From assembly GCA_000091165.1 (NCBI GenBank), contig FP565575.1, positions 1,680,001-1,712,000 of the forward strand: a stretch of 32,000 bases of DNA. The letters are read 5' to 3'. How positions within the stretch are numbered: the stretch's first letter is position 1; the number at the start of each line of letters is the position of its first letter. The translations under genes and the position numbers were made by a program. This DNA comes from Candidatus Methylomirabilis oxygeniifera (GTDB lineage: Bacteria; Methylomirabilota; Methylomirabilia; Methylomirabilales; Methylomirabilaceae). Positions 3,107 through 25,151 of the stretch are shown here, piece by piece. The notes under the pieces are model-generated. The model saw nothing but the letters and a program-made list of their open reading frames with translations. It was not told where the DNA came from and ran no database searches.

Positions 3107-4479
3107 AGCAGATCTGGGTGTGTATCTTAGTCTGGGCGTGTCTCGGGTCGACTGTCGCGTTTGCGGACGACGCGGGTACAACGACTGCCGGCGAAAGGGA
3201 AGAGTGTCGGATCTGCGGCATGTGGATCGATCAATACCAACGGACCGCAGCGGAGCTGATCTACAAAGACGGTAGAAAAGAACATACCTGCGGAGTCGCC
3301 TGCATGTTCCGCATTCTGGACGAAGAAGGGGTAGACGCCTTTACCTCCATCACCGTTCGCGATTGGAAGACGGGCAATCGGGTGGATGCGCAGGATGCGA
3401 CGTATGTAATCGGAAGCCGCGTCATCCCGGAGATGATTCCGAACATTATTGCGTTCGAAAGCAAGGCCGCCGCTGAGACATTTCAAGCCCAGGAAGGCGG
3501 CGCATTGATCGACCTTGGGAGGGGTCTGCAAATCATCACACCACGCGGTCAGACGGTCCCGTTCCGGCTTCAGACCGCCGTCACAACGGGACGAGGATCG
3601 TTCGGGCTGGGAGCCGGGTTCGGGTACTTGCGAAGGGATGATATCAAGCTCGGATCGGACAGCCGCGATCCGCGCAAGTTTATCAGCAGCCGCGCTCAAC
3701 AACCACGCGCCCCCAGAAGGGTCGAATCGTACGGTCAATCGCTCTTCATTAATTATGGTATCACCGATCGCCTGGCAGTACTGGCGAATCTGCCGTACTT
3801 CGAAAGGGAAACCAGCCGGTTCGAAAAAAATCTGAAGACGGCTGAGATTACGACCATAGACGCCGATGCCGCCGGATTGGGCGATCTCGATCTTCGTTTT
3901 CGCTATAACCTGTGGCGGAATACCATTCAGGATACGTGGGTCACGGCAACATTGACGACAACCATCCCTACCGGGAGATTTAATAAGGCATTTATCGATA
4001 GCCCTGCTTTGCAGTCCGGGGCCGGCGCCCCATCGGTTGGTGGAGGGCTGCTCTTTTCTTACAGTTGGCGAGACCTGTGGTTTCACTCCTCTGCAACATA
4101 TACCGGCAGGCTACGAAACGGTGACGAATACAGGTTCGGCAACGAAGCGGCGGCCGGGGTGGCGGTCCATTATACGCCACGGTATGATGTCATGCTCGGG
4201 ATCGAGGCGGACGCGGTCCATGCTGAAAAAAATGAGTTTAAAGGGGTAACCGTCGGCAACACCGGGGGGACCAGAGTCAATCTTACGTTCGTTGCCGACT
4301 GGAGATTTCTCCTCGCGCTGGGCGGCAATTTTACGTTGCGGGCCGCCATGGGGTTGCCGATCCATGAAGATTTGAACCATCGCACGATCGGACCGAGAGA
4401 GCAGGTCCAGCTCGGTGGCGGCTATTTCGGCAACGTGGCCCTGACCTACGCCACTCGCTTTCCGTTTATTGAGGAGTGA
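3103..4479 (+). CDS. Fusion protein: N-terminal NosL-like domain plus C-terminal outer-membrane beta-barrel (Phenol_MetA_deg/transporter-like)
   Basis: The ATG overlaps the nosL stop (ATGA). Sec signal peptide ...TVAFA|DD. CRICGM lies at nt 3205-3222, followed by ...IAFESKAAAETF..., which is NosL-like. From about residue 150 there is an alternating beta-strand pattern with GLGDLDLRFRY and IPTGRF...LQSGAGAPSVGGGL motifs, typical of small OM barrels of the MetA-pathway family. Confidence 0.8.
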   Translation: MKQIWVCILVWACLGSTVAFADDAGTTTAGEREECRICGMWIDQYQRTAAELIYKDGRKEHTCGVACMFRILDEEGVDAFTSITVRDWKTGNRVDAQDATYVIGSRVIPEMIPNIIAFESKAAAETFQAQEGGALIDLGRGLQIITPRGQTVPFRLQTAVTTGRGSFGLGAGFGYLRRDDIKLGSDSRDPRKFISSRAQQPRAPRRVESYGQSLFINYGITDRLAVLANLPYFERETSRFEKNLKTAEITTIDADAAGLGDLDLRFRYNLWRNTIQDTWVTATLTTTIPTGRFNKAFIDSPALQSGAGAPSVGGGLLFSYSWRDLWFHSSATYTGRLRNGDEYRFGNEAAAGVAVHYTPRYDVMLGIEADAVHAEKNEFKGVTVGNTGGTRVNLTFVADWRFLLALGGNFTLRAAMGLPIHEDLNHRTIGPREQVQLGGGYFGNVALTYATRFPFIEE

Positions 4480-13786: not shown

Positions 13787-15298
13787 ATGAACATGACCCG
13801 ATTCGTTATCGCGTGCGTTGCCGTGATCCTCTTGAGTCTCCACACCTCGGCGTGGGCCGACAAACTCATAGAGCTTGAGCAGACCTTCCAGGCGCAGCAG
13901 CAGTCGTTGCAGCAGTTGCAGCAGGAGATGCACCGACTGCGGCAAGAGCGGTTCGCACAACAGGACGAGGTAACCAGGCGTGTGATGGAGGTAGAGCAGA
14001 AGGCCGCCGAGGTCGCGGCATCGTCTATGCTCACCGGGTATGAGCCGGTACCAGGGAAGGGATTCTTCATGAGGTCGGCCGATGGCCAATTTGAACTGAG
14101 GGTGCGCGGGTTCATCCAGACTTGGATGCAAGTTGAAGGGGCGCGAAACGAAGAAGATTTCCCGGGTGTCGTCGACGGTCAGGATCTCACGAAGGCGGGA
14201 CTGGCGCGGCACGACCCGAGCACATTCCGACTCCGCCGCACCCGAATCATCATAAGCGGCCAGATCTATAAGGACTTCGGCTTTCTTATCGAGCCTGAGT
14301 TTACCGGTTCTACGCGGCTCGAGGAGACTTGGCTCAATTACACCTACGCCCCCTGGGCGAAGGTGACCGTGGGACAGTACAAGGCCCGATTCGGTCTTGA
14401 GATGCTCACCTCCTCTCGGGACCTGGACTTTGCTGAGCGGGCAGTCATCTCCAAGGCGCTTTCCCCGGAATATCAGATCGGCGCCACCGTCGAGGGCAAT
14501 CTGAAGCTCGCTACCCTGCCGGTCTACTACGGAGTAGGAATCTATAACGGCTGCGGCCGGGTCGATCAGTGTTCCGGCGGCATCGATAACGACGGCGATA
14601 AAGAGTTCACCGGTCGAGTGACCTTTTCGCCTCCGATGCCCTTCGGCAATCTCACTATCGGCCTGAATGCCGATCACCGTACCTTTCGAGTCGTGAGGGG
14701 GAAAGGCGCGGCCGATCCGGGCGGCGCTACGACACCGGTCGGTAGCGGCTCCCCGTTCCACCGCTTCAACCCGGTTGGTCCGACCGGCGTCAAGCTGGCC
14801 GGCAACGGCGAAGGCGGAACGCAGAACGGCTTCCTGATCAACGGCAACCGCGTGACCGGAGGCGGCGACATCGTCTTCGACATCTATCCGTTTATCATTA
14901 AAGGTGAGTACACCTACGCCTCCCAGGAGCGTGACGGATTAGGCGCCGGCAGCACGAATCTCGACAATCTCATCATGCAGGGTGGGTACGGATCGATCGG
15001 CTATTGGCTCTTCGGTAACAAGCTCAAGGGCCTTCAGGCCATCGGCCGCTATGAGCATGTGCGAATCGACGACAACAAGGGCAAATTTACTGCGCCGGTC
15101 ACAGTCGCCAATGAACGACCGATGGAGCTTCGTTCCGGCACCTTCGGTCTGAACTGGTTTATCAATTCCAACGTCCGTCTGCGGGGCAACTACATTCTCA
15201 CCGACCTCAGACCAGGCCGAAATGCCGTCGGGATGAGCAATAGCACGCACGGCGAAATTGCCCACCAAGGGATCGCTGAATTCCAAGTCCAGTTCTAA
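13787..15298 (+). CDS. Outer-membrane porin, OprO/OprP (Porin_O_P) family, with an N-terminal coiled coil
   Basis: GGAGGA RBS, signal peptide ...TSAWA, and a Gln/Leu heptad stretch (LEQTFQAQQQSLQQLQQEMHRLRQE). The family motif FRLRRTRIIISG is present, with beta-strand alternation and a terminal aromatic ...AEFQVQF. Confidence 0.85.
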   Translation: MNMTRFVIACVAVILLSLHTSAWADKLIELEQTFQAQQQSLQQLQQEMHRLRQERFAQQDEVTRRVMEVEQKAAEVAASSMLTGYEPVPGKGFFMRSADGQFELRVRGFIQTWMQVEGARNEEDFPGVVDGQDLTKAGLARHDPSTFRLRRTRIIISGQIYKDFGFLIEPEFTGSTRLEETWLNYTYAPWAKVTVGQYKARFGLEMLTSSRDLDFAERAVISKALSPEYQIGATVEGNLKLATLPVYYGVGIYNGCGRVDQCSGGIDNDGDKEFTGRVTFSPPMPFGNLTIGLNADHRTFRVVRGKGAADPGGATTPVGSGSPFHRFNPVGPTGVKLAGNGEGGTQNGFLINGNRVTGGGDIVFDIYPFIIKGEYTYASQERDGLGAGSTNLDNLIMQGGYGSIGYWLFGNKLKGLQAIGRYEHVRIDDNKGKFTAPVTVANERPMELRSGTFGLNWFINSNVRLRGNYILTDLRPGRNAVGMSNSTHGEIAHQGIAEFQVQF

Positions 15299-15810: not shown

Positions 15811-16827
15811 CTAGGCTGCAAACTCGACTCCGCTGTTTCGCACCAACTGGTCGTCTGCCAGTGCCCACGTAGGCACGGCGAAGTTCGCAATTAGCGGTTG
15901 TCCGGAGAAGTGAATGCCCACCACTTTACCTGTTTCCACGTCAATCACCGCCGAACCGGAGTTTCCACCCAGTGTCGTGCAGTCATGTGCCAGTGCCTGG
16001 ACCGATCGCCCGAACGACTCCGCCTGTTGCACCCCCTTCAATCGCCCCGGTTGCAGACGCTTTTTGTCGAATACCCCCCGGAAGATCTGGATCTGCTGGA
16101 CAAGGTCCTCAGATGGGTCAAACGCTGGGTAGCCGATCACTGCCGCCATGCGATCCTCGATGCCCGCTGGTGCGGACGCGACCAGTGGCAACGGTGCCAC
16201 ATTTCCCGGCAGCGGCCCTATCTCCAACACCGCCATGTCCCACTCTTCTAGGATCAGCACCGGCGCAGTCACTTGGACTGCAACCGGCGCAGTCGAACCA
16301 ACTTCCTGCTTTAGATCCAGAGACGGAGTGATGCCAGGCGTAAACGACAACTGCACGCCGCTCCCCAAGCCCTGGGTGAAGAGTTGCGCCACGTGACGAT
16401 TCGTGATCAGGCGCCGCTCTCCACATACGAACGCTGTCCCTGCGTACGTTAGCTTCGGATGACCGGTCAGGTCCAGCCGTCCGATGCCCCGGATAAGGGG
16501 ATCTATCATCGCCCGTCGGTCATTGAGGTCCTGCCACAGCGAAGGAAGCACGCCAAAGGAGTCCCCCTGAATGTCAAACGCCGGCCGCAATCCGTTGCCT
16601 AGGATGATGCTTTCCAAATGGACTAGGTCCCGCTGGTCCAAGGACTCATCCCGCGCGAACCGCCGCCAGGAGTCGATCGCTTCCGGCGTTACTGTCGGGG
16701 GGCGGATCCCAGCCGACTCTAGCCTGAAAGCGGAGGCCGCCACCTCTTCCAGGTGTTCCGTCTTTACTCCGTCGCTATGTTGGATTTCCCGCAATCGGCG
16801 CAGCAGTAGTTGTTCGCGTTTAGTCAT
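15811..16827 (-). CDS. Cytoplasmic trypsin-like (S1/Trypsin_2) serine protease with an uncharacterised ~130-aa N-terminal domain
   Basis: Catalytic triad contexts are ITNRHVA (His), WDMAVLEI (Asp) and GGNSGSAV (Ser). There is no signal peptide. GGGAG lies 11 nt before ATG 16827; the tracked ORF extends to a TTG at 16893 with no RBS. Confidence 0.85.
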   Translation of the reverse strand: MTKREQLLLRRLREIQHSDGVKTEHLEEVAASAFRLESAGIRPPTVTPEAIDSWRRFARDESLDQRDLVHLESIILGNGLRPAFDIQGDSFGVLPSLWQDLNDRRAMIDPLIRGIGRLDLTGHPKLTYAGTAFVCGERRLITNRHVAQLFTQGLGSGVQLSFTPGITPSLDLKQEVGSTAPVAVQVTAPVLILEEWDMAVLEIGPLPGNVAPLPLVASAPAGIEDRMAAVIGYPAFDPSEDLVQQIQIFRGVFDKKRLQPGRLKGVQQAESFGRSVQALAHDCTTLGGNSGSAVIDVETGKVVGIHFSGQPLIANFAVPTWALADDQLVRNSGVEFAA

Positions 16828-16934
16828 TTTTTGATTGACTCCCTGTGCTCTACGACTATTATTTGTCATATTTAATTGTTTTTCGCAAATCAAAAAGAGC
16901 TATCTTTCTGAAATCGAATCAAGGAAGGGACTCT

Positions 16935-18356
16935 ATGGTCCGAGCAACTTTACTGGCATGCAGCCTCGCGGTGACAGGCGCACTCCTGTTGGGAGGACTC
17001 ATTCCGATGACATCCGCACAGAATCCAACTTTGGGTGAAACTCCACAGTCCACACCGAACTGGGAAACAATTAAGAAGGATGCCGATGCCGAGAAAGCCG
17101 CGCTGGACGCAAAGAGGCAGCTTCTCGATGCGCGAAGAGCGCTGGAAGCCGCTGAAGCGCCTCCAGACCAGACAAAGAAGGCGATGGACAACCAACTTGC
17201 CGCTTCCAAGGCTGCCAAGGATCTCGCCGATGCCGAGAAAGCCGCCGCAGACGCCCGTAAGGCCAAGGCGGATGCCACCCTCGCGGCCTTCAAAGCAAAC
17301 ATGGGTGAAGTGCCGGCATCCGGGTATACGGGTGACGTGACCCTGAAGGAGAAGACTGGCATAATCGAGACCGCTCTCCTCGCCGCCAAGGCTGTGAAGA
17401 CGGCAGCTCAACGCATCGTCGACGTACTCCCGCAGCAACCCGCCAAGAGGATCGTTGTATTGTACGCTGCCGCCGAGGTTCCGAATTTCCAGGCGCTGAT
17501 TATGTTCCGGGCTCAGATCGCTTTGGCGAACAAAGGGTTTGCCGACGCCCAGAAAGCATCCAACGATGCCGACCGAAAAGCCGTACCGCCCGACTTTAAG
17601 CTAGAGTTCGTCCCCCCCGCGGCTGCGGCAGGTCTTACCCTTGAAGCCGCGAATAAGTTGCTCGCCTTTTTCCGGACCGACTACACTGTTGGCGGAGTCG
17701 ATCTCACATCAGAAGACTCACTGCTCGTCCATGCACTGGCCGGACTCATCGCCGGTTCCAACAAGAATCTTGACGTACAACTCCCCGCCGTCTACAGTCC
17801 GGGCGCTTTGTCCGATGCCGGTTCCGGAATTCTGAACGACCTCACCACCCTGTCTCTGCTGAAGACGGGCGCTCAGGATAAGGCCAACCGCCACGATAAG
17901 TTCTCTGCTCGCTTCACGGAGGACGCTGGGAAGGAAGTGGACCCGGAAAAGAAGGCCGCCTTGCTGGATAAAGCCAAAACTCACAAGGCCGCCGCCGACA
18001 CCTGGAAAGCCGCCATCGGCTTGTACGATAGCTTCTTCAGCAAGCTCACCACCGTCGACGATAAAGGCGTGGCCCCGCTCGCCAATGTCATTCGCGATGG
18101 CGTCGTCGCTGACGTGCTGCTAAAGGACAATCTTCTCTTACTCGTGAAACTCCAGAAATTCGGCGGGGCGTACTATACTAAGAAAAATATGTTGACTCTC
18201 TTTGGAGGCATGCCCTTCTTCCACATGGGCGGCGTCGTTGCAAGCTTTGTCCTCCTGGATGGGAAAGCCGGAACCGTACAGGGGTCCGGCGTCATACCCG
18301 TGCACGGCGGTTTCGTGAAAGCCAGCGATCTGCCGCAGCAGATAAACGAGGATTGA
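16935..18356 (+). CDS. Secreted protein of unknown function with an N-terminal Ala/Lys/Asp-rich coiled-coil region
   Basis: AGGAAGGGA RBS before ATG 16935. Sec signal MVRATLLACSLAVTGALLLGGLIPMTSA|QN. The motif DAEKAA(L/A)DA(K/R) is repeated. The C-terminal ~300 aa is globular and I recognise no family. Confidence 0.8.
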   Translation: MVRATLLACSLAVTGALLLGGLIPMTSAQNPTLGETPQSTPNWETIKKDADAEKAALDAKRQLLDARRALEAAEAPPDQTKKAMDNQLAASKAAKDLADAEKAAADARKAKADATLAAFKANMGEVPASGYTGDVTLKEKTGIIETALLAAKAVKTAAQRIVDVLPQQPAKRIVVLYAAAEVPNFQALIMFRAQIALANKGFADAQKASNDADRKAVPPDFKLEFVPPAAAAGLTLEAANKLLAFFRTDYTVGGVDLTSEDSLLVHALAGLIAGSNKNLDVQLPAVYSPGALSDAGSGILNDLTTLSLLKTGAQDKANRHDKFSARFTEDAGKEVDPEKKAALLDKAKTHKAAADTWKAAIGLYDSFFSKLTTVDDKGVAPLANVIRDGVVADVLLKDNLLLLVKLQKFGGAYYTKKNMLTLFGGMPFFHMGGVVASFVLLDGKAGTVQGSGVIPVHGGFVKASDLPQQINED

Positions 18357-18522
18357 CGACCAGCCTATCGGGCTGCTCTTCTGGCTCGGTCCGGGCGTGA
18401 GTGTGCCTCGCTTGTGCGGTATAAACTTGAGTGGACGGACCGATAAAAACGCTACAAGAAATTGAAAAGGCGGCAGATTTCGTATGTGGACTACGATCTG
18501 CTAGTCGGGAAACCACTACTTG

Positions 18523-20892
18523 ATGCTAACCGAAGCCGATACCTGCCGAAAGTACGTCCTGCCGAAGCTTTACGCCGCTGGCTGGAGTGACGATCAAATC
18601 AGCGAGCAGAAGTATTTCACCGACGGACGCATTGTCGTGACCGGTCGGAGACACTTCAGGAAACCGGGGAAGAAGGCGGATTACCTGCTCAATTATCGGC
18701 CTGACTACCGGCTTGCTGTGGTTGAGGCCAAGGTCTCCTATAAGAACCCCGCCGACGGCCTTCAGCAGGCAATGGAGTATGCGGAAATCCTCGGGCTCAG
18801 ATTTGCCTATTCGACGAACGGCCATGGAATCGTAGAGCACGACTACACCACAGGTGGGCAGCAGGTCCTGGACATCTTTCCCTCTCCTGATGAACTGTGG
18901 CGTCGGGTTCGTGCGGCCGAAGGCCTGGCCGACGACAAGGCAGCCGAAGACCTGCTGTTTCCGTTTAACCGCGAACTTCGCAATCCAGACGGTTCCATCA
19001 AGACTCCCCGGTATTTCCAGGAGATCGCGATCCATCGAGCCGTGCAGGCCGTCCTGCAGGGCAAACCTCGCATCCTGATCACCATGGCCACGGGGACCGG
19101 CAAGACCTTTGTGGCCGTCCAGATCGTTTGGAAACTCTGGAAGACGGGACATAAAGGGCGGATCCTGTATCTGGTTGATCGGAACATCCTCGTAGATCAG
19201 CCTCTTGTCCGTGAGTTCAACATCTTTGGCGGTGCCGTCTGGAAGATCCAAGGAGAGGCGAAGAAGGGGCGAGAGATCTACTTCGCGCTCTACCAGGCTC
19301 TGGCAGAGGACGAGTCGCGGCTGGGTCTCTATAAGGAATACCCGCCGGATTACTTCGACCTGATCATCGTGGACGAGTGTCACCGTGGGAGCGCGACGGA
19401 TCAGTCCCGCTGGCGCCGAATCCTGGAGTACTTTGATGCGGCCACTCAGATCGGGATGACAGCTACACCCCGGCGCGAGGAGACCCGGGACACCTACGGG
19501 TACTTCGGCAATCCCATCTATACCTATCCATTGAGTCAGGGCATCGAGGATGGGTTCCTGGCACCCTATCGCGTGCATCGCATCGTTCCCAGCGTGGACG
19601 CCACCGGGTGGCGGCCGGAGCGGGACCAACTTGACCGCTTTGGACGCGAGATCCCGAACGGCGTGTACGAGACCAAAGATTTCGAGCGTGTAGTCTCCCT
19701 GCTCAGCCGGACCGAGGTCGTGGCCCAGCATCTGACCGCCTATCTGAAAAGAACAGACCGATTCGCTAAGACCATGGTGTTTTGCGTGGACCAGGAGCAC
19801 GCTGAAGACATGCGTGCCGCGCTGCACAAGGCCAATGAAGACCTTACGCAGCAATACCCACACTACGTGGCGCGCGTAACGGTCGATGAAGGGAAGGTGG
19901 GTCGGGGCCATCTGGATGACTTCGTGGATCCCGAGCGAGACATGCCGGTGATCCTGACGACGTCTAAGCTCCTCAATACCGGAGTGGACGCCCCCACGTG
20001 CCGAAACATTGTCCTGTTCAAGCCTATCGGCTCCATCGTGGAGTTCAAGCAGATCATCGGGCGAGGCACCCGCCTCTATCCGGACAAGGATAAGCTGTGG
20101 TTCACGATCCTGGACTACGCCGGGGCTACCCGCCTCTTCGCCGATCCCAACTTTGATGGGGAGCCTGAACGGATTACTGAGGAAAGGATTTACCCGTCTG
20201 GCGAAGAGCAAGGGTCACCCGTGATAGTCGGAGAAGGCCCTTCGTATGGAGGAGAAGAAGACGAAGACGTGCCCGTGAGCGACTGGCAGGAGCAGCCGCA
20301 CAGGAAGTACTATGTAGACGGGGTCGAGGTGCGGATCACCGCAGAGATAGTGTATGAGCTGGACAGTTCAGGGAAGCAGCAACGAGTCGTCAAGTACACG
20401 GACTATACAGCCGAACAAGTGCGCCGGCTGTACCCCACCCCCGCTGAACTTCGGACAGAGTGGATGGATGCAGAACACCGGGGGGCCATTCAGCAGGCCC
20501 TCGCTGAACGCGGCATTGACTTCTCCGCCCTGGTCGAAGCCACAAACCAGCCAGATGCGGATCCGTTCGATCTTCTCATCCACGTTGCGTGGAACGCTCC
20601 CCTCCGAACCAGGCGGGAGCGCGCCGAGAGTGTGTCCGGAGGGAAAGGAAAGACTTTTGGGACCTGTACACGCCTCAGGCTCGCGGCATTCTCAATGATC
20701 TGCTGGATAAATACACAGACTATGGTGTCACGCAGCTCGATGATCTCCAGATTCTTGAAGTTCCACCTCTCTCCAAGCGCGGAACCCCTATGGAAATCGC
20801 CGGTTTCTTTGGAGGAGTCGATCACCTGCGATCTGCAGTTGCTGAGCTTCAGTCTCTCTTGTACAGATAGGCATAGTAATACAAATAGGTAA
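18523..20892 (+). CDS. hsdR: Type I restriction enzyme R subunit (EcoEI/EcoAI-like), with its C-terminal domain frameshifted near nt 20635
   Basis: HSDR_N nuclease N-terminus (LTEADTCRKYVLPKL), helicase motifs MATGTGKT, DECHRGS and TATPRR. After ...PLRTRRERAESV the frame yields low-complexity nonsense until 20892, while the homologous sequence continues in another frame (see 20589..20870). Confidence 0.9.
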   Translation: MLTEADTCRKYVLPKLYAAGWSDDQISEQKYFTDGRIVVTGRRHFRKPGKKADYLLNYRPDYRLAVVEAKVSYKNPADGLQQAMEYAEILGLRFAYSTNGHGIVEHDYTTGGQQVLDIFPSPDELWRRVRAAEGLADDKAAEDLLFPFNRELRNPDGSIKTPRYFQEIAIHRAVQAVLQGKPRILITMATGTGKTFVAVQIVWKLWKTGHKGRILYLVDRNILVDQPLVREFNIFGGAVWKIQGEAKKGREIYFALYQALAEDESRLGLYKEYPPDYFDLIIVDECHRGSATDQSRWRRILEYFDAATQIGMTATPRREETRDTYGYFGNPIYTYPLSQGIEDGFLAPYRVHRIVPSVDATGWRPERDQLDRFGREIPNGVYETKDFERVVSLLSRTEVVAQHLTAYLKRTDRFAKTMVFCVDQEHAEDMRAALHKANEDLTQQYPHYVARVTVDEGKVGRGHLDDFVDPERDMPVILTTSKLLNTGVDAPTCRNIVLFKPIGSIVEFKQIIGRGTRLYPDKDKLWFTILDYAGATRLFADPNFDGEPERITEERIYPSGEEQGSPVIVGEGPSYGGEEDEDVPVSDWQEQPHRKYYVDGVEVRITAEIVYELDSSGKQQRVVKYTDYTAEQVRRLYPTPAELRTEWMDAEHRGAIQQALAERGIDFSALVEATNQPDADPFDLLIHVAWNAPLRTRRERAESVSGGKGKTFGTCTRLRLAAFSMICWINTQTMVSRSSMISRFLKFHLSPSAEPLWKSPVSLEESITCDLQLLSFSLSCTDRHSNTNR
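20589..20870 (+). pseudogene. hsdR: Displaced C-terminal segment of hsdR (second half of the EcoEI_R_C-type domain) in the -1 frame
   Basis: From nt 20637 this frame reads RRERKDFWDLYTPQARGILNDLLDKYTDYGVTQLDDLQILEVPPLSKRGTPMEIAGFFGG...LQSLLYR*. That is the expected continuation of type IB HsdR C-termini. Confidence 0.75.
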
Positions 20893-20962
20893 AATGCAAT
20901 ATGACCTTATATAATATATTATAGTTATAATTGATAAAGGTAATATATAATGATACATTACC
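20871..20962 (+). promoter_or_regulatory. AT-rich junction and likely abiE promoter/operator region
   Basis: About 90 bp that is visibly AT-dominated within a GC-rich context. It contains a perfect 14-bp palindrome TATAATATATTATA (20910-20923), which includes TATAAT hexamers. It also contains the inverted repeat GGTAAT-N12-ATTACC (20939-20962), which abuts the abiEi start. Confidence 0.5.
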
Positions 20963-20965
20963 TTG

Positions 20966-21574
20966 ATGATGGGAAGACGGGATCCACAAGAGGCCAGGCG
21001 TCGTCTTTACGAATATGCAGTTGCCCAAGGCGGCTATTTTACGGCTGCCCAAGCTAGGATAGCCGGCTACCCCAAGCAGCTCCAGTACTACCATGTCAGG
21101 CGTGGCAACTGGGTTCGGGAAGATCGTGGTATCTTTCGCCTCTGGGAATGGCCGAGGAGCTCGCACGAAGACCTCATTCGCTGGACGTTGTGGAGTCGGG
21201 GTGCGGCGGTGGTTTCCCACCAGAGCGCGATGGCGGTGCATGAGATCAGCGATCTAATGCCGGCCAAGATACACCTGACTGTCCCGCCGGAGTTTCGCAA
21301 AACTCCATCCCCAGCCATGGTCCTTCACCGGGACCGTCTTGCTCCCCACGAAATTGAACAGCGTGATGGGTTTCGTGTTACAACACCCCTGAGAACCCTT
21401 ATTGATGCCGCCCGCGTCGATGTGGATCCTGAGCGTCTATCCGCTGCAGTCCGGGATGCCGTTTTGAAAGGCCTCGTTGCAGACCGCCACATCGAGGCTG
21501 CCATAGACACACTCCAAGGAGCGGCGGCAGAACGCCTGTATCAGGCGCTCACTCTGGCCCGGAAGGCTGCTTGA
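20966..21574 (+). CDS. abiEi: AbiEi-family antitoxin / transcriptional regulator (type IV TA, abortive infection)
   Basis: The N-terminal wHTH pattern ...LYEYAVAQGGYFTAAQARIAGYPKQLQYYHVRRGNWVREDRGIFRL is typical of AbiEi_4. The stop overlaps the next gene's start (TGATG). Confidence 0.85.
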   Translation: MMGRRDPQEARRRLYEYAVAQGGYFTAAQARIAGYPKQLQYYHVRRGNWVREDRGIFRLWEWPRSSHEDLIRWTLWSRGAAVVSHQSAMAVHEISDLMPAKIHLTVPPEFRKTPSPAMVLHRDRLAPHEIEQRDGFRVTTPLRTLIDAARVDVDPERLSAAVRDAVLKGLVADRHIEAAIDTLQGAAAERLYQALTLARKAA

Positions 21575-22440
21575 TGAGATACGCCAATGCGGCAAGCTTC
21601 CGGATGGCCCTGGAGGAACGCATCAGGCAGCGCAGTGCCACCGATGGAGTGGCGATACAACGACTCAGAAAGCGCGTCACATTCGAGCGGTTTCTGGCTC
21701 GTCTTCAAGCGCCACCGGACAGCCCCTGGTTCTTGAAAGGGGCATTCGCCCTGGATCTTCGATTTGGGGATCGATCCCGCACCACGAAAGACCTCGACCT
21801 CGCAGTTGATCTTGCCATCGCGTCCAATGTTGTTCCCGCGACTCCAGCGGGGATCGCAGCACGTCTGCAGGCGGCCGCAGCTTACGAGCTGGACGACTTC
21901 ATCGTCTTTAGTGTCCCGGCGGAAGGAGAACGGATCCAGCAAGAACCAAGCGCTCAGACCTATCGGTTCCACGTTCGGGCACTCCTGGATAAACGTCCCT
22001 TCGAAGACTTCAAGGTCGATGTCGGTACCGTAACGCCACTGGTTGCACCAACGGAAGAGATTGCTGAGAGCGACACGTTGCGCTTTGCAGGGATTGTTCC
22101 CCGACGGTTCCGAGCGATCTCGCTCGCCCAGCACTTTGCCGAAAAGATTCACGCGCTCACCTTTCCGTGGGAAGATCGGGAACAAACCAGGGTGAAGGAT
22201 CTCGTGGACATTGTGCTGATCCTCGAGGTGAACGCACCCGATCCCCACACAGCCCGGAATGCCCTCCAAGCGGTGTTCGATGGAAGAGGCACGCATTCTC
22301 TTCCCTCCCAGATTTCCGATCCGCCACCCTCATGGACTGGGTCATATACCGCCACTGCAAGAGAGCTCACACTCACTCACATGACTATAGAAGACGGCAC
22401 CAGGCTTCTTCATCAATTTTGGGCCAAAGTTTTTCCATGA
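21574..22440 (+). CDS. abiEii: AbiEii/AbiGii-family nucleotidyltransferase toxin
   Basis: FLKGAFALDLRFGDRSRTTKDLDL is the NTase motif of the family. Length is ~290 aa and the gene is coupled to abiEi. Confidence 0.9.
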   Translation: MRYANAASFRMALEERIRQRSATDGVAIQRLRKRVTFERFLARLQAPPDSPWFLKGAFALDLRFGDRSRTTKDLDLAVDLAIASNVVPATPAGIAARLQAAAAYELDDFIVFSVPAEGERIQQEPSAQTYRFHVRALLDKRPFEDFKVDVGTVTPLVAPTEEIAESDTLRFAGIVPRRFRAISLAQHFAEKIHALTFPWEDREQTRVKDLVDIVLILEVNAPDPHTARNALQAVFDGRGTHSLPSQISDPPPSWTGSYTATARELTLTHMTIEDGTRLLHQFWAKVFP

Positions 22441-22449
22441 GGTAAGAGT

Positions 22450-23961
22450 ATGGCGAGACGCAGAAGAGAAGAGACCTCAGTGCCGCTGACAGCAAAGGCA
22501 CAACTGTCAGCGGCTACCAAGAGAGCACGGGATATCATGCGCAAGGACGCCGGACTGAACGGCGACCTGGATCGCATTCCCCAGCTCTCCTGGATCATGT
22601 TCTTGAAATGCTTCGACGACCTTGAGCAACGTCGCGAGGTGACGGAGAAGAAGTATCGGCTCGCAATCGAGCCACCCTACCGGTGGCGTGACTGGGCAGG
22701 CAACCCGGACAAGGGACTGACAGGAGAGTCGCTTCTCAAGTTCATCAACGACGAGCTGTTCCCATATCTGCGGAGCCTCACGGGAACGGTGGCAGGGGAT
22801 GCAAGAGACGTTCTGGCGGCTGTCTTCAAGGAAACCTATAACCGAATGCTTTCCGGATACCTCCTGCGGGATGTCGTGAATCTGGTCAACCGGCTCAATT
22901 TTAATTCTTCTGACGACATCCACACACTGGCCCACCTGTACGAGTCGATGCTCCGCGAGATGCGAGACGCGGCGGGGGACTCCGGCGAATTCTACACGCC
23001 CAGGCCAGTCATTCGGCTTATTGTGCAGCAGGTAAACCCTCGCCTGGGAGAGAGGGTGCTGGACCCGGCGGCGGGGACCGGCGGCTTTCTTGTGGAGTCC
23101 TACGAACACCTGAAGGCCCAGGTGAAAAGCGTGGAGGATCGACGGCGCCTTCAGGAGGATACGCTTTTCGGAATCGAAAAGAAGCCGATGCCATACCTGC
23201 TTGGGATGATGAACCTCCTGCTTCACGGCCTGGACCGCCCGAATCTGCTCCGCGACAACGCCTTGAGGAACCCGCTCGTCCAGATCACCGACAGCGGCGC
23301 ACGCTATCACGTGATCATGACAAACCCACCCTTTGGTGGTGAGGAGGAGAAGGGTGTCCAGGACAACTTTCCGGATGCCACTCGCACCTCGGAAACCGCC
23401 CTCCTCTTCCTGCAATTCATCATGCGTAGTCTCAAGCGCGGGGGTCGCTGCGGTATGGTCGTCCCCAACGGCACGCTCTTCGGTGATGGCGTCTGCGCCC
23501 GCGTCAAAAAGGAGCTTCTCGAACACTTCAACCTGCACACGATCGTCCGCCTCCCCAACGGGGTCTTCGCGCCCTATACCTCTATCCCCACCAACCTGCT
23601 CTTTTTCGACCGCTCCGGTCCCACGAAGGAGATCTGGTATTACGAGCAACCGCTGCCCGAGGGCCGGAAAAACTACACGAAAACCCAGCCTCTTCAGTTT
23701 GAGGAGTTCGCTCCTTGCGTGGCCTGGTGGAAGAACCGTGAGGAGAATGACCGTGCCTGGAAGGTTTCGATCAACAATGTGCTGAAGTATGACAAGAATA
23801 GTAATCTTATCTCCGCCAACCTCGACATCAAGAACCCGAATGGCAAGCGGGACTTCGAGCATTTGCCACCGGAGCAACTGGCCGATGACATTTTGAAGAA
23901 AGAGCAGCAGATTCTAGAGATCATGGCGGAGATTAAGCAGACGCTGGCGAGGGCAGGGTGA
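22450..23961 (+). CDS. hsdM: Type I R-M N6-adenine DNA methyltransferase subunit
   Basis: HsdM N-terminal domain, GEFYTPRPV, AdoMet motif VLDPAAGTGGFL and catalytic NPPFGG. Confidence 0.97.
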   Translation: MARRRREETSVPLTAKAQLSAATKRARDIMRKDAGLNGDLDRIPQLSWIMFLKCFDDLEQRREVTEKKYRLAIEPPYRWRDWAGNPDKGLTGESLLKFINDELFPYLRSLTGTVAGDARDVLAAVFKETYNRMLSGYLLRDVVNLVNRLNFNSSDDIHTLAHLYESMLREMRDAAGDSGEFYTPRPVIRLIVQQVNPRLGERVLDPAAGTGGFLVESYEHLKAQVKSVEDRRRLQEDTLFGIEKKPMPYLLGMMNLLLHGLDRPNLLRDNALRNPLVQITDSGARYHVIMTNPPFGGEEEKGVQDNFPDATRTSETALLFLQFIMRSLKRGGRCGMVVPNGTLFGDGVCARVKKELLEHFNLHTIVRLPNGVFAPYTSIPTNLLFFDRSGPTKEIWYYEQPLPEGRKNYTKTQPLQFEEFAPCVAWWKNREENDRAWKVSINNVLKYDKNSNLISANLDIKNPNGKRDFEHLPPEQLADDILKKEQQILEIMAEIKQTLARAG

Positions 23962-25151
23962 CGAACAAGGGCTTCCCAATGGTGCCGCTGGCACGAGTTA
24001 TTGGGCACCGTAAGGAGTTCATAACAGTCGACGATTTGGAAACCTATAAACGATGCCGTGTGCAACTCCACGCCCAGGGTATCGTTTTGCGAGACATCGT
24101 CTCTGGTTCGGAGATCAAGACCAAGAAGCAACAGGTCTGTCGGGCAGGTGAGTTCCTAGTGGCAGAGATCGATGCCAAGGTTGGGGGTTTCGGAATCGTT
24201 CCCGATGATCTTGATGGAGCCATTGTCAGCAACCACTACTTTCTCTTCCAAATTGATCATACGGTATTGGACTGTCGATTCTTGGACTTCTTCATCCGTA
24301 CGCCAACGTTTCGTGATCAGGTAGCAGCCCAAGGATCGACCAACTACGCGGCCATTCGCCCCAATGATGTGCTTGGCTACAAGATTTCACTACCTCCCCT
24401 GGAGGAGCAGTGGAGACTTGTGGCGCGGATCGAAGAACTGGCCGCCAAGATCGAGCAAGCCAGGGACCTTCGACGTGAGGCGGTGGAAGAGGCGGGAGCA
24501 CTGCTCTCTGCTGCGAGCAGGAATTTATTTGTTTCGGACGGTCTCAAAGCCCCACGGGGCCGACTCGAACACTTCGCTACGCGCATTACGAAAGGCGAAT
24601 CTCCTGAATGGCAGGGTTTTACGTATCAAGAGTTAGGTCCCGTGTTTGTCCGCAGTGAAAATGTCGGCTGGGGCACATTGGACCTTTCCCGGCGGACATG
24701 CATTCCTGAGGAATTTCACCATAAGTTGAAACGCTCCCAGTTACAACCAGGAGATGTCCTGATAAATCTTGTCGGTGCGTCGATCGGGCGCTCTTGCGTT
24801 GTTCCTGCAGATCTCGGGGAAGCGAATGTGAACCAAGCCGTTGCGGTTATTTCTCCAGATTCTCGGCAGCTAGACAGCAATTTTCTGATGCATTTTCTAA
24901 TCAGCGCACCGGCTCAAACTACTATTCACAGCGGGAAGGTTGAGACTGCACGTCCAAACATTTCCCTGGGAGATCTTCGAAATTTGATTCTGCCGGTCCC
25001 GCCCCTCTTCGAGCAGCAGCGCATCGTCGCGTACCTGGACAACTTGTGGGCGAAGGTTGACGCTCTGAAGCGCTTGCAGGCCGCGACCAACCCTGAACTT
25101 GGCGCGTTGCTCCCTTCCGTCCTCGACAAGGCTTTCAAGGGGGAACTCTGA
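23958..25151 (+). CDS. hsdS: Type I R-M specificity subunit (two target-recognition domains)
   Basis: The GTG overlaps the hsdM stop (GTGA); an alternative ATG lies at 23979. The central conserved helix is LPPLEEQWRLVARIEELAAKIEQARDLR and the distal one is LPVPPLFEQQRIVAYLDNLWAKVDALKRL. Confidence 0.92.
   Translation: MTNKGFPMVPLARVIGHRKEFITVDDLETYKRCRVQLHAQGIVLRDIVSGSEIKTKKQQVCRAGEFLVAEIDAKVGGFGIVPDDLDGAIVSNHYFLFQIDHTVLDCRFLDFFIRTPTFRDQVAAQGSTNYAAIRPNDVLGYKISLPPLEEQWRLVARIEELAAKIEQARDLRREAVEEAGALLSAASRNLFVSDGLKAPRGRLEHFATRITKGESPEWQGFTYQELGPVFVRSENVGWGTLDLSRRTCIPEEFHHKLKRSQLQPGDVLINLVGASIGRSCVVPADLGEANVNQAVAVISPDSRQLDSNFLMHFLISAPAQTTIHSGKVETARPNISLGDLRNLILPVPPLFEQQRIVAYLDNLWAKVDALKRLQAATNPELGALLPSVLDKAFKGEL

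Follow-up and report, generated by a model that had tools for sequence, protein, structure and literature searches.

A trypsin-like protease gene and its divergent neighbour in Candidatus Methylomirabilis oxygeniifera as a candidate protease-activated effector cassette

The protease gene and its divergent partner

We analysed a 32,000-nucleotide stretch of the Candidatus Methylomirabilis oxygeniifera genome (contig FP565575.1, positions 1,680,001 to 1,712,000 of the forward strand; this whole stretch is called the window here) and within it a pair of divergent genes, one encoding a trypsin-like serine protease and the other a protein of no recognised family with a predicted Sec signal, which we call the partner. 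On balance we lean towards the view that the two form an effector cassette that is activated by the protease and whose effector belongs to a new family. A previous sequence-only reading of the window had described head-to-head genes separated by an AT-rich spacer of about 107 bp, and we found both open reading frames (ORFs) and the spacer (Table 1), with a GC content of 33.6% in the spacer vs 57.4% in the whole window. A promoter scan placed a sigma-70-like site, TTGACT-16-TATTAT (10/12 match), at 16835-16862 on the plus strand, facing the partner gene, and a Shine-Dalgarno (SD) sequence, AAGGAAGGGA, lies at 16921-16930, 5' of the partner ATG at 16935. Each of the two genes occurs once in the 2.75-Mb genome. 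Since both have many homologues (1117 for the protease and 130 close ones for the partner), neither is a chance ORF.

The protease matched Pfam Trypsin_2 at residues 130-305 (E 1.8e-16; 61.6 bits vs a cut-off of 27.6). The catalytic residues H145, D197 and S290, in the order H-D-S, do not vary among the 38 homologues aligned, and no hydrophobic N-terminus was found (19-residue Kyte-Doolittle maximum 1.35), in agreement with the intact triad and missing signal peptide that had been read from the sequence. The AlphaFold2 (AF2) model had a predicted local distance difference test (pLDDT) score of 91.3 and a predicted template modelling (pTM) score of 0.91. Its top Foldseek matches are Deg/HtrA/DegS/V8 serine proteases (E ~1e-10, probability 1.00 among the matches listed), and the sequence around the catalytic Ser is closest to that of glutamyl endopeptidases.

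In the N-terminal region of the protease, which is conserved along with the protease domain, L63, R81, P82, W98, G116 and R117 are invariant in the alignment. In the AF2 model helices 3-19 and 23-35 form a hairpin (residues 3-35) on a variable tether, the linker of residues 36-47, which differs in length among relatives; helices 48-58, 65-80, 96-103 and 105-112 follow, and these further helices and a strand are packed on the protease. No EAD Pfam domain was matched in the window protease. A whole-chain Foldseek search aligned ~220-265 columns and its matches are all protease domains, so that the N-terminal region was apparently unmatched. The earlier description of a ~130-residue N-domain that could not be placed therefore stands as far as family and fold are concerned; the region is part of a widespread module of N-domain plus S1 protease and is not specific to this gene.

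We searched for this module with the first 345 residues of a fusion protein from locus L012 (L### labels denote loci) and found 2294 matching proteins. All 120 matches listed carry a C-terminal effector domain, mostly Endonuclease_NS, with TIR in 6, Lipase_3 in 4, Astacin in 8 and Metallophos in 1; among the matches listed, the relatives are mainly Endonuclease_NS fusions of 676-750 residues. The L012 module is 39-44% identical to the window protease from about residue 56 on, and over residues 56-336 the window protease shares 44% identity with the protease half of the Trypsin-Endonuclease_NS-Astacin protein of L012, which is encoded directly upstream of a partner gene. L026 also encodes a Trypsin-PLD fusion. 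The window protease has no fused C-terminal effector domain, its chain ending 48 residues after the catalytic Ser. Even stand-alone proteases carry the name 'endonuclease G' in JGI because the module is mostly fused to Endonuclease_NS.

The longer relatives, mostly Endonuclease_NS-fused, have the architecture of LypC from the LypABC system of Caulobacter crescentus, in which a peptidase (residues 1-335, Ser296) is followed by an endonuclease (Banks et al., PMC13236601). The protease region of LypC (~335 residues, Ser296) compares with 338 residues and Ser290 in the window protease, a likeness of architecture only. Unlike LypC, the window protease is without a fused effector and is paired with a separate exported protein. 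By sequence and fold prediction, the window protease is a cytoplasmic S1 (chymotrypsin-fold) serine peptidase and a stand-alone copy of a LypC-like effector-carrying module.

The partner starts with MVR, ATLLACSLAVTGALLLGGLIP and MTSA↓Q (the arrow marks the predicted cleavage site), which correspond to a basic n-region, an h-region and an AXA-type site; signal peptides were judged by inspection and hydropathy throughout. Charges flanking the h-region favour an N-in orientation. Residues 29-122 are rich in Ala (29%), Lys (13%) and Asp (11%). The loop at residues 123-142, modelled as disordered, has the consensus GEVPASGYTGDVTLKDKAG, with G124, G133, V135 and G142 nearly invariant, and is one candidate for a site of processing or function. 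The C-terminal domain contains a helical hairpin (residues 289-372, 45+36 residues, pLDDT >90) and a Gly-rich five-strand sheet (residues 400-457), and carries the motifs FFRTDY, GG.YYTKKN, FGGMPF.HMGG and PVHGGF. The model as a whole has a pLDDT of 70.6, rising above 80 over most of residues 260-470.

The invariant residues of the partner are G233, F246, G411, G432, P455, G458 and G459, and no invariant catalytic-type polar residue was seen in the alignment. Because the conserved residues are of the Gly/Leu/Phe/Pro type, none of them catalytic, the alignment suggests that the partner is a structural, oligomerising or membrane-active/pore-type protein rather than an enzyme. Neither a transmembrane segment nor a Cys is present in the mature protein. 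We considered whether it might be a lipoprotein and rejected this, as Cys9 is too near the N-terminus and is not conserved.

A profile search with the partner against 1.84 billion cluster representatives found 2242, 1458 and 461 of them at E<=1e-3, 1e-10 and 1e-30, mostly of 380-520 residues. Pfam searches with the window protein and with each of the 32 members of the alignment gave no family, only scattered coiled-coil noise, and the partner had no match among the PADLOC models (PADLOC-DB version from 2023). The best match of the profile to PDB sequences had an E of 0.25. With Foldseek, the model had no match in the PDB at E<=0.001 and no gasdermin was among the 50 best matches listed; in BFVD only tape-measure-like coiled-coil proteins were matched. 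Likenesses to an ABC-exporter helix bundle, GNA1162, the CsgG pre-pore and AhlB (Foldseek E 0.08-0.9) were too weak to accept. The Sec signal, the Ala/Lys/Asp-rich coiled coil and the C-terminal domain without a family that had been read from the sequence were all found, and neither gene has a clear housekeeping homologue.

Two distant relatives of the partner, P0296 (709 residues) and P0344 (664 residues), have extra N-terminal domains of 200-270 residues without a Pfam match, and for these and others no PDB match was better than E 0.085. An H-x7-D ... H-x-H pattern occurs in the P0344 extension, and its match to 9flh, a 'LysM domain-containing protein', hints at a possible cell-wall-related fusion but is not significant (E 0.085).

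Table 1. Coordinates of the two genes, their parts and the adjoining genes in the window
Feature	Position	Strand	Basis or detail
Protease gene	15811-16827	-	ORF, 338 aa, start ATG 16827
Catalytic triad span	15958-16395	-	H145 16393-16395, D197 16237-16239, S290 15958-15960
Protease N-terminal region, ~125 aa	16453-16827	-	AF2 secondary structure, no family assignment
Divergent intergenic spacer	16828-16934	.	107 bp, 33.6% GC
Partner gene	16935-18356	+	ORF, 473 aa
Predicted Sec signal peptide, aa 1-28	16935-17018	+	Cleavage predicted after TSA; hydropathy maximum 2.09 at aa 5-23
Internal SD GGGAGGA (16991-16997) and ATG 17007 (Met25)	16991-17009	+	Gly-Gly codons GGA GGA, 9-nt distance, in frame
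Ala/Lys/Asp-rich helical (coiled-coil-like) region, aa 43-122	17061-17300	+	AF2 helices 43-74, 83-122
Conserved loop MGEVPASGYTGDVTLKEKTG, aa 123-142	17301-17360	+	pLDDT <50 for aa 122-141, between helical region and globular domain
Alpha/beta C-terminal domain, aa 143-473	17361-18353	+	AF2 model
Adjoining defence genes hsdR, abiEi, abiEii, hsdM, hsdS	18520-25151	+	Pfam and PADLOC

Linkage of the partner to proteases

DNA of partner loci was read from named genomes and metagenomes; the counts below mix isolates and metagenome bins, and the loci are phylogenetically non-independent. We found a window-type S1 protease within 3 kb of the partner, on either side and either strand, at 16 of the 28 assessable loci that had been found through the partner. 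At 5 of the 28 another protease class adjoins the partner, which gives an adjacent protease of any kind at 21. An EAD1-trypsin protein adjoins it in L006 and L015 and a papain-like C1 peptidase in L022. In L036 a caspase (C14) gene between those for two TPR-CHAT proteins, together with a gene for a HExxHxxGxxH-motif protein, stands beside the partner, and in L038 a subtilase (S8) gene overlaps the partner stop codon by 4 nt, a translationally coupled arrangement with CHAT genes around it. In a Bradyrhizobium locus (L003) caspase and CHAT genes lie 6-8 kb from the partner. When loci were instead found through the protease and picked blind to their neighbours, the partner adjoined the protease in all three (L026-L028).

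The adjacency is kept over at least four phyla, in three gene orders and with gaps of 3-90 bp or overlaps. Sixteen long contigs of the same length are common to the partner and protease match lists, and homologues of the two genes occur together in Acidobacteriota, Planctomycetota, Myxococcota and Pseudomonadota as well as in the window genome, which bears out the co-occurrence that the sequence-only reading had proposed to look for. Pairwise distances of proteases and partners are correlated (r=0.61, Mantel p ~0.001, 13 pairs), and shared host ancestry may contribute to this. The shared spacer had also been taken to imply co-regulation. The divergent layout is real and recurs in L027, L028 and L042, but most relatives are co-directional operons; since the divergent layout is only one of several, the evidence for linkage is the conserved adjacency and not the shared spacer.

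These observations bear on the explanation that the two proteins do not interact, both genes hitch-hiking on mobile islands with the partner an ordinary periplasmic or surface protein. The predicted compartments of the two proteins differ, the window genes are transcribed divergently and six partner loci have no recognised protease, all of which would fit. We nevertheless think this explanation very improbable, as it has to account for adjacency across phyla, gene orders and short gaps, for the correlated divergence of protease and partner, and for the substitution of another protease class where the S1 protease is absent.

A CARD-like (EAD)-trypsin protease and a STAND ATPase (AAA_16) accompany the partner at five loci (L006, L020, L021, L026 and L041), of which all except L006 also contain the window-type protease. 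In L044 the pair is accompanied by a second, EAD (EAD1 or EAD5)-trypsin protease, and the contig end cuts the locus before any ATPase. This arrangement resembles the CARD-NLR / type II gasdermin system of Lysobacter enzymogenes, which is laid out as effector, first protease, CARD-protease and NLR-like ATPase, and in such operons other effectors often take the place of the gasdermin gene (Wein et al., PMC10312443). L020, L021, L026, L041 and L044 share the operon plan of the Lysobacter system with the partner in the gasdermin/effector slot and the first trypsin-like protease next to it, and because the partner occupies this position we read it as filling an effector slot. Unlike the Lysobacter-type effectors (gasdermin, nuclease, phospholipase), the partner belongs to an undescribed family of ~450 residues that usually has a Sec signal, and it has neither a gasdermin fold nor a gasdermin Pfam match. 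Also unlike the Lysobacter system, the window copy and about half of its relatives consist of protease and partner only.

The change of protease class beside the partner has parallels as well. Latent effectors are encoded beside several protease classes (trypsin-, caspase- and subtilisin-like), co-vary with them and are licensed by cleavage; the bGSDM and MBL families are encoded beside varied protease classes, and Pepco and EACC1 are non-enzymatic proteins that form pores after cleavage (Evans et al., 10.1101/2025.11.14.688446; Tuck et al., PMC12799240). The partner shares with the Pepco, EACC1, MBL and alpha/beta-hydrolase modules its adjacency to several protease classes (S1, EAD-S1, C14/CHAT, S8 and C1). 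Pfam models exist for gasdermin, Trypco1/2 and EACC1, and the partner matches none of them. It differs from Pepco and EACC1 in being four times their size and in its long coiled coil, and an export signal is present in ~60% of the partner loci read, whereas we found no report of such a signal for families of that type.

The CARD-NLR-like operons, the swapping of protease classes and the effector-fused module fit the sequence-only reading's idea that a trypsin-like protease beside a novel partner follows the logic of conflict systems. Together they suggest that the partner is a candidate latent effector, of a family that is undescribed in the open-access literature searched, though it may have been described elsewhere.

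A different role for the partner is as regulator, inhibitor, decoy substrate or envelope-state sensor of a protease that itself kills by cutting host or phage proteins. LypC appears to work in this manner, and so do caspase-like defence proteases that have no effector. It is the protease activity of LypC, not its nuclease activity, that is needed for envelope lysis (PMC13236601), and effector-independent protease defence has been reported (10.1101/2025.11.14.688446). The export of the partner beside cytoplasmic proteases and its lack of a toxin-like fold would suit such a role too. We consider it unlikely. Five unrelated protease classes beside the partner are what one would expect if it were a substrate or effector common to them all, and less so if it were a specific inhibitor that had to match every protease fold; the partner also occupies the effector slot of the CARD-NLR-like operons.

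The pair is accessory in its own lineage. The partner was found in 0/18 genomes of the same genus and 0/12 of the same order, 14 of these genomes being at least 90% complete, and in 2 of 401 sampled Acidobacteriota genomes. The interval from the porin gene (13787-15298) to orf26012 is a variable slot that is filled here by the pair and the type I restriction-modification (R-M) and AbiE genes; it measures 10.7 kb in the window genome vs 2.1 kb and 6.3 kb in two genomes of the same genus. Because this interval differs in size and content between genomes of one genus, the pair sits in a variable island slot, and the defence-island setting beside hsdR that had been proposed holds in the form of an accessory slot adjoining R-M and AbiE genes. 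Relatives of the pair adjoin HipA, PIN/DUF433, PDDEXK and STAND genes. Judged by its distribution, the pair is a horizontally mobile cassette spread over many bacterial phyla.

The setting also bears on the possibility that the cassette serves programmed lysis or death outside phage defence, such as particle or public-goods release or developmental death. LypABC, which drives lysis so that gene-transfer agents are set free (PMC13236601), is a precedent. An exported coiled-coil protein would suit an envelope-directed lysis factor, and among the partner hosts are social or complex bacteria (Polyangiaceae, Planctomycetota, Acidobacteriota). The window copy, however, adjoins R-M/AbiE genes in a variable slot, relatives adjoin HipA, PIN/DUF433 and STAND genes, and no phage-like or gene-transfer-agent genes were seen beside the pair. 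We therefore regard a role of this kind as distinctly unlikely.

Several further features were seen at these loci. In the two same-genus genomes (L034 and L035) the porin-to-orf26012 slot has other content, with one 909-residue ORF. The window hsdR has a frameshift near 20630, and similarity in the main frame ends after about residue 705; positions 84-163 of the EcoEI_R_C model are matched by an ORF at 20589-20870 that lies in a different frame (region 20589-20892). The restriction subunit may therefore be inactive, or there may be a sequence error. Downstream of the pair in L010 (12272-18854) are genes for a subtilase (S8, 587 residues), a sigma-70-region-4 protein and an anti-sigma zf-HC2-CHAT protein (1085 residues). 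A PIN_10/DUF5615-DUF433 toxin-antitoxin pair adjoins the partner cassette of L036 (12093-12706). At 3180-3983 of the same locus, between the TPR-CHAT and caspase genes, a 267-residue protein has HEAGHTLGFPHEH, a zinc motif of the metzincin/astacin type, and an astacin-type domain is likewise fused to the protease in L012.

Compartments and a predicted internal start

The sequence-only reading had pointed out that a cytoplasmic protease stood beside an exported partner. We found this mismatch throughout the family; it is not peculiar to the window locus. Among 21 partner genes read at the DNA level, 13 have a canonical signal peptide, with n-region, h-region and AXA-type site followed by acidic residues, and 8 begin at the mature N-terminus; six further loci are all signal-bearing. 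Every inspected protease associated with a partner is without a signal peptide, including the L038 subtilase that is coupled to a signal-bearing partner. STAND ATPases are cytoplasmic. An uncleaved N-out anchor that would keep the partner in the cytoplasm was considered and rejected, as the h-region is preceded by basic and trailed by acidic residues in every signal-bearing relative inspected.

In signal-bearing members the predicted cleavage site is preceded, at a distance of 2-4 residues, by a Met that forms part of the pattern ..GG..xM(A/S/T)..A↓Q. The signal-less proteins of L013, L014 and L016 start at a Met homologous to this internal one, and many database entries are called from it, including the window's own P0001 (449 residues, Met25). 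In the signal-bearing members the Gly codons provide a GGAGG-type SD sequence 6-9 nt upstream of the internal ATG. The duplex of this internal SD with the anti-SD has an energy of -10.2 kcal/mol in the window gene vs a mean of -1.8 at the gene's other Met codons. Of 18 signal-bearing loci, 12 have a duplex energy of at most -9 kcal/mol and 16 of at most -5.5, and the other internal Met codons of these 18 genes average -0.7 to -5. Within the seven codons before the internal Met, GGA makes up 26 of the 34 Gly codons at these loci; elsewhere in the genes it makes up 6-47% (median ~16%). Only 4 of 280 signal-like ORFs of the window genome have an internal ATG with an equally strong SD.

A synonymous-resampling test of the internal SD gave a combined p of 3e-5, uncorrected for relatedness. 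Locus by locus the test was weak (p 0.04-0.5), since two adjacent Gly codons make the site G-rich whichever of them are used; only the combined test and the bias towards GGA codons carry conviction. As the simplest reading this suggests a second translation start that would give a cytoplasmic, signal-less isoform of the partner. Pausing of the ribosome at the SD-like site is an alternative to a second start.

A precedent for such an arrangement is found in Salmonella, where PagC and OmpX are made in forms with and without a signal peptide from alternative in-frame starts (PMC11005335). There too the upstream start gives a Sec pre-protein and an internal start near the cleavage site gives a cytoplasmic form of near-mature length. 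Unlike in PagC and OmpX, the internal start here is a predicted one, supported by an SD that is conserved in codon choice across distant lineages, and it would serve a conflict system and not an outer-membrane protein. We tentatively propose, as a possibility about which we remain doubtful, that the partner gene would yield both an exported pre-protein (from ATG 16935) and a cytoplasmic form (from Met25), and so a dual-localised protease-gated death effector. The cytoplasmic Met25 form would then be the substrate of the cytoplasmic protease. Otherwise export might act as a safety valve that would place the latent toxin beyond the reach of the protease until export or the membrane potential fails.

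Proposed action and significance

Our data point to a protease-activated effector cassette, and several observations weigh against it. Near the window copy there is no STAND ATPase, CARD-like protease or sensor domain, the neighbours being a porin gene and hsdR, and EAD1 and EAD5 searches of the window genome gave no match, as they also gave none in control genomes. A recognisable protease next door is absent in 6 of the 28 partner loci. The partner has no similarity to known pore-former or toxin folds in the Foldseek searches of the PDB and BFVD. Finally, the predicted Sec signal of the partner and the signal-less proteases make direct contact between protease and substrate not obvious.

If the pair is an effector cassette, it could act as follows. 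The protease would be triggered, for example when a phage infects the cell or when an upstream protease or sensor activates it, and would then cleave the partner. The freed activity of the cleaved partner would damage the membrane or envelope, and the cell would be killed or lysed before the phage cycle is completed. The sensorless cassette of the window may be self-contained, the N-domain of the protease acting as its regulator or pro-region; it may need unlinked activators, for example the genes for a 1384-residue CHAT protein and a caspase-like protein ~95 kb away; or it may be an orphan. These latter genes lie at 1791994-1795580 of the same genome, ~95 kb beyond the pair, the CHAT-domain ORF (1384 residues) near a caspase-like (Peptidase_C14) ORF of 285 residues, and by their domains they are a second candidate protease-based conflict locus.

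Protease-gated death effectors are regarded as a principal strategy in bacterial immunity and as ancestors of caspase-gasdermin signalling. A published survey lists only ten effector families, to which the partner family, with 461-1458 clusters at 50% identity in at least five phyla, would be an addition. It combines a fold without a solved match, five protease classes, CARD-NLR operons and an export signal. If the partner is an effector, it would represent a new route from a protease signal to cell killing and may explain the envelope lysis by LypC-type proteases. If the internal start is real, alternative translation initiation would place one toxin precursor in two compartments, and a dual-localised protease-gated death effector, if true, would have no precedent described among protease-effector defence families in the open-access literature.

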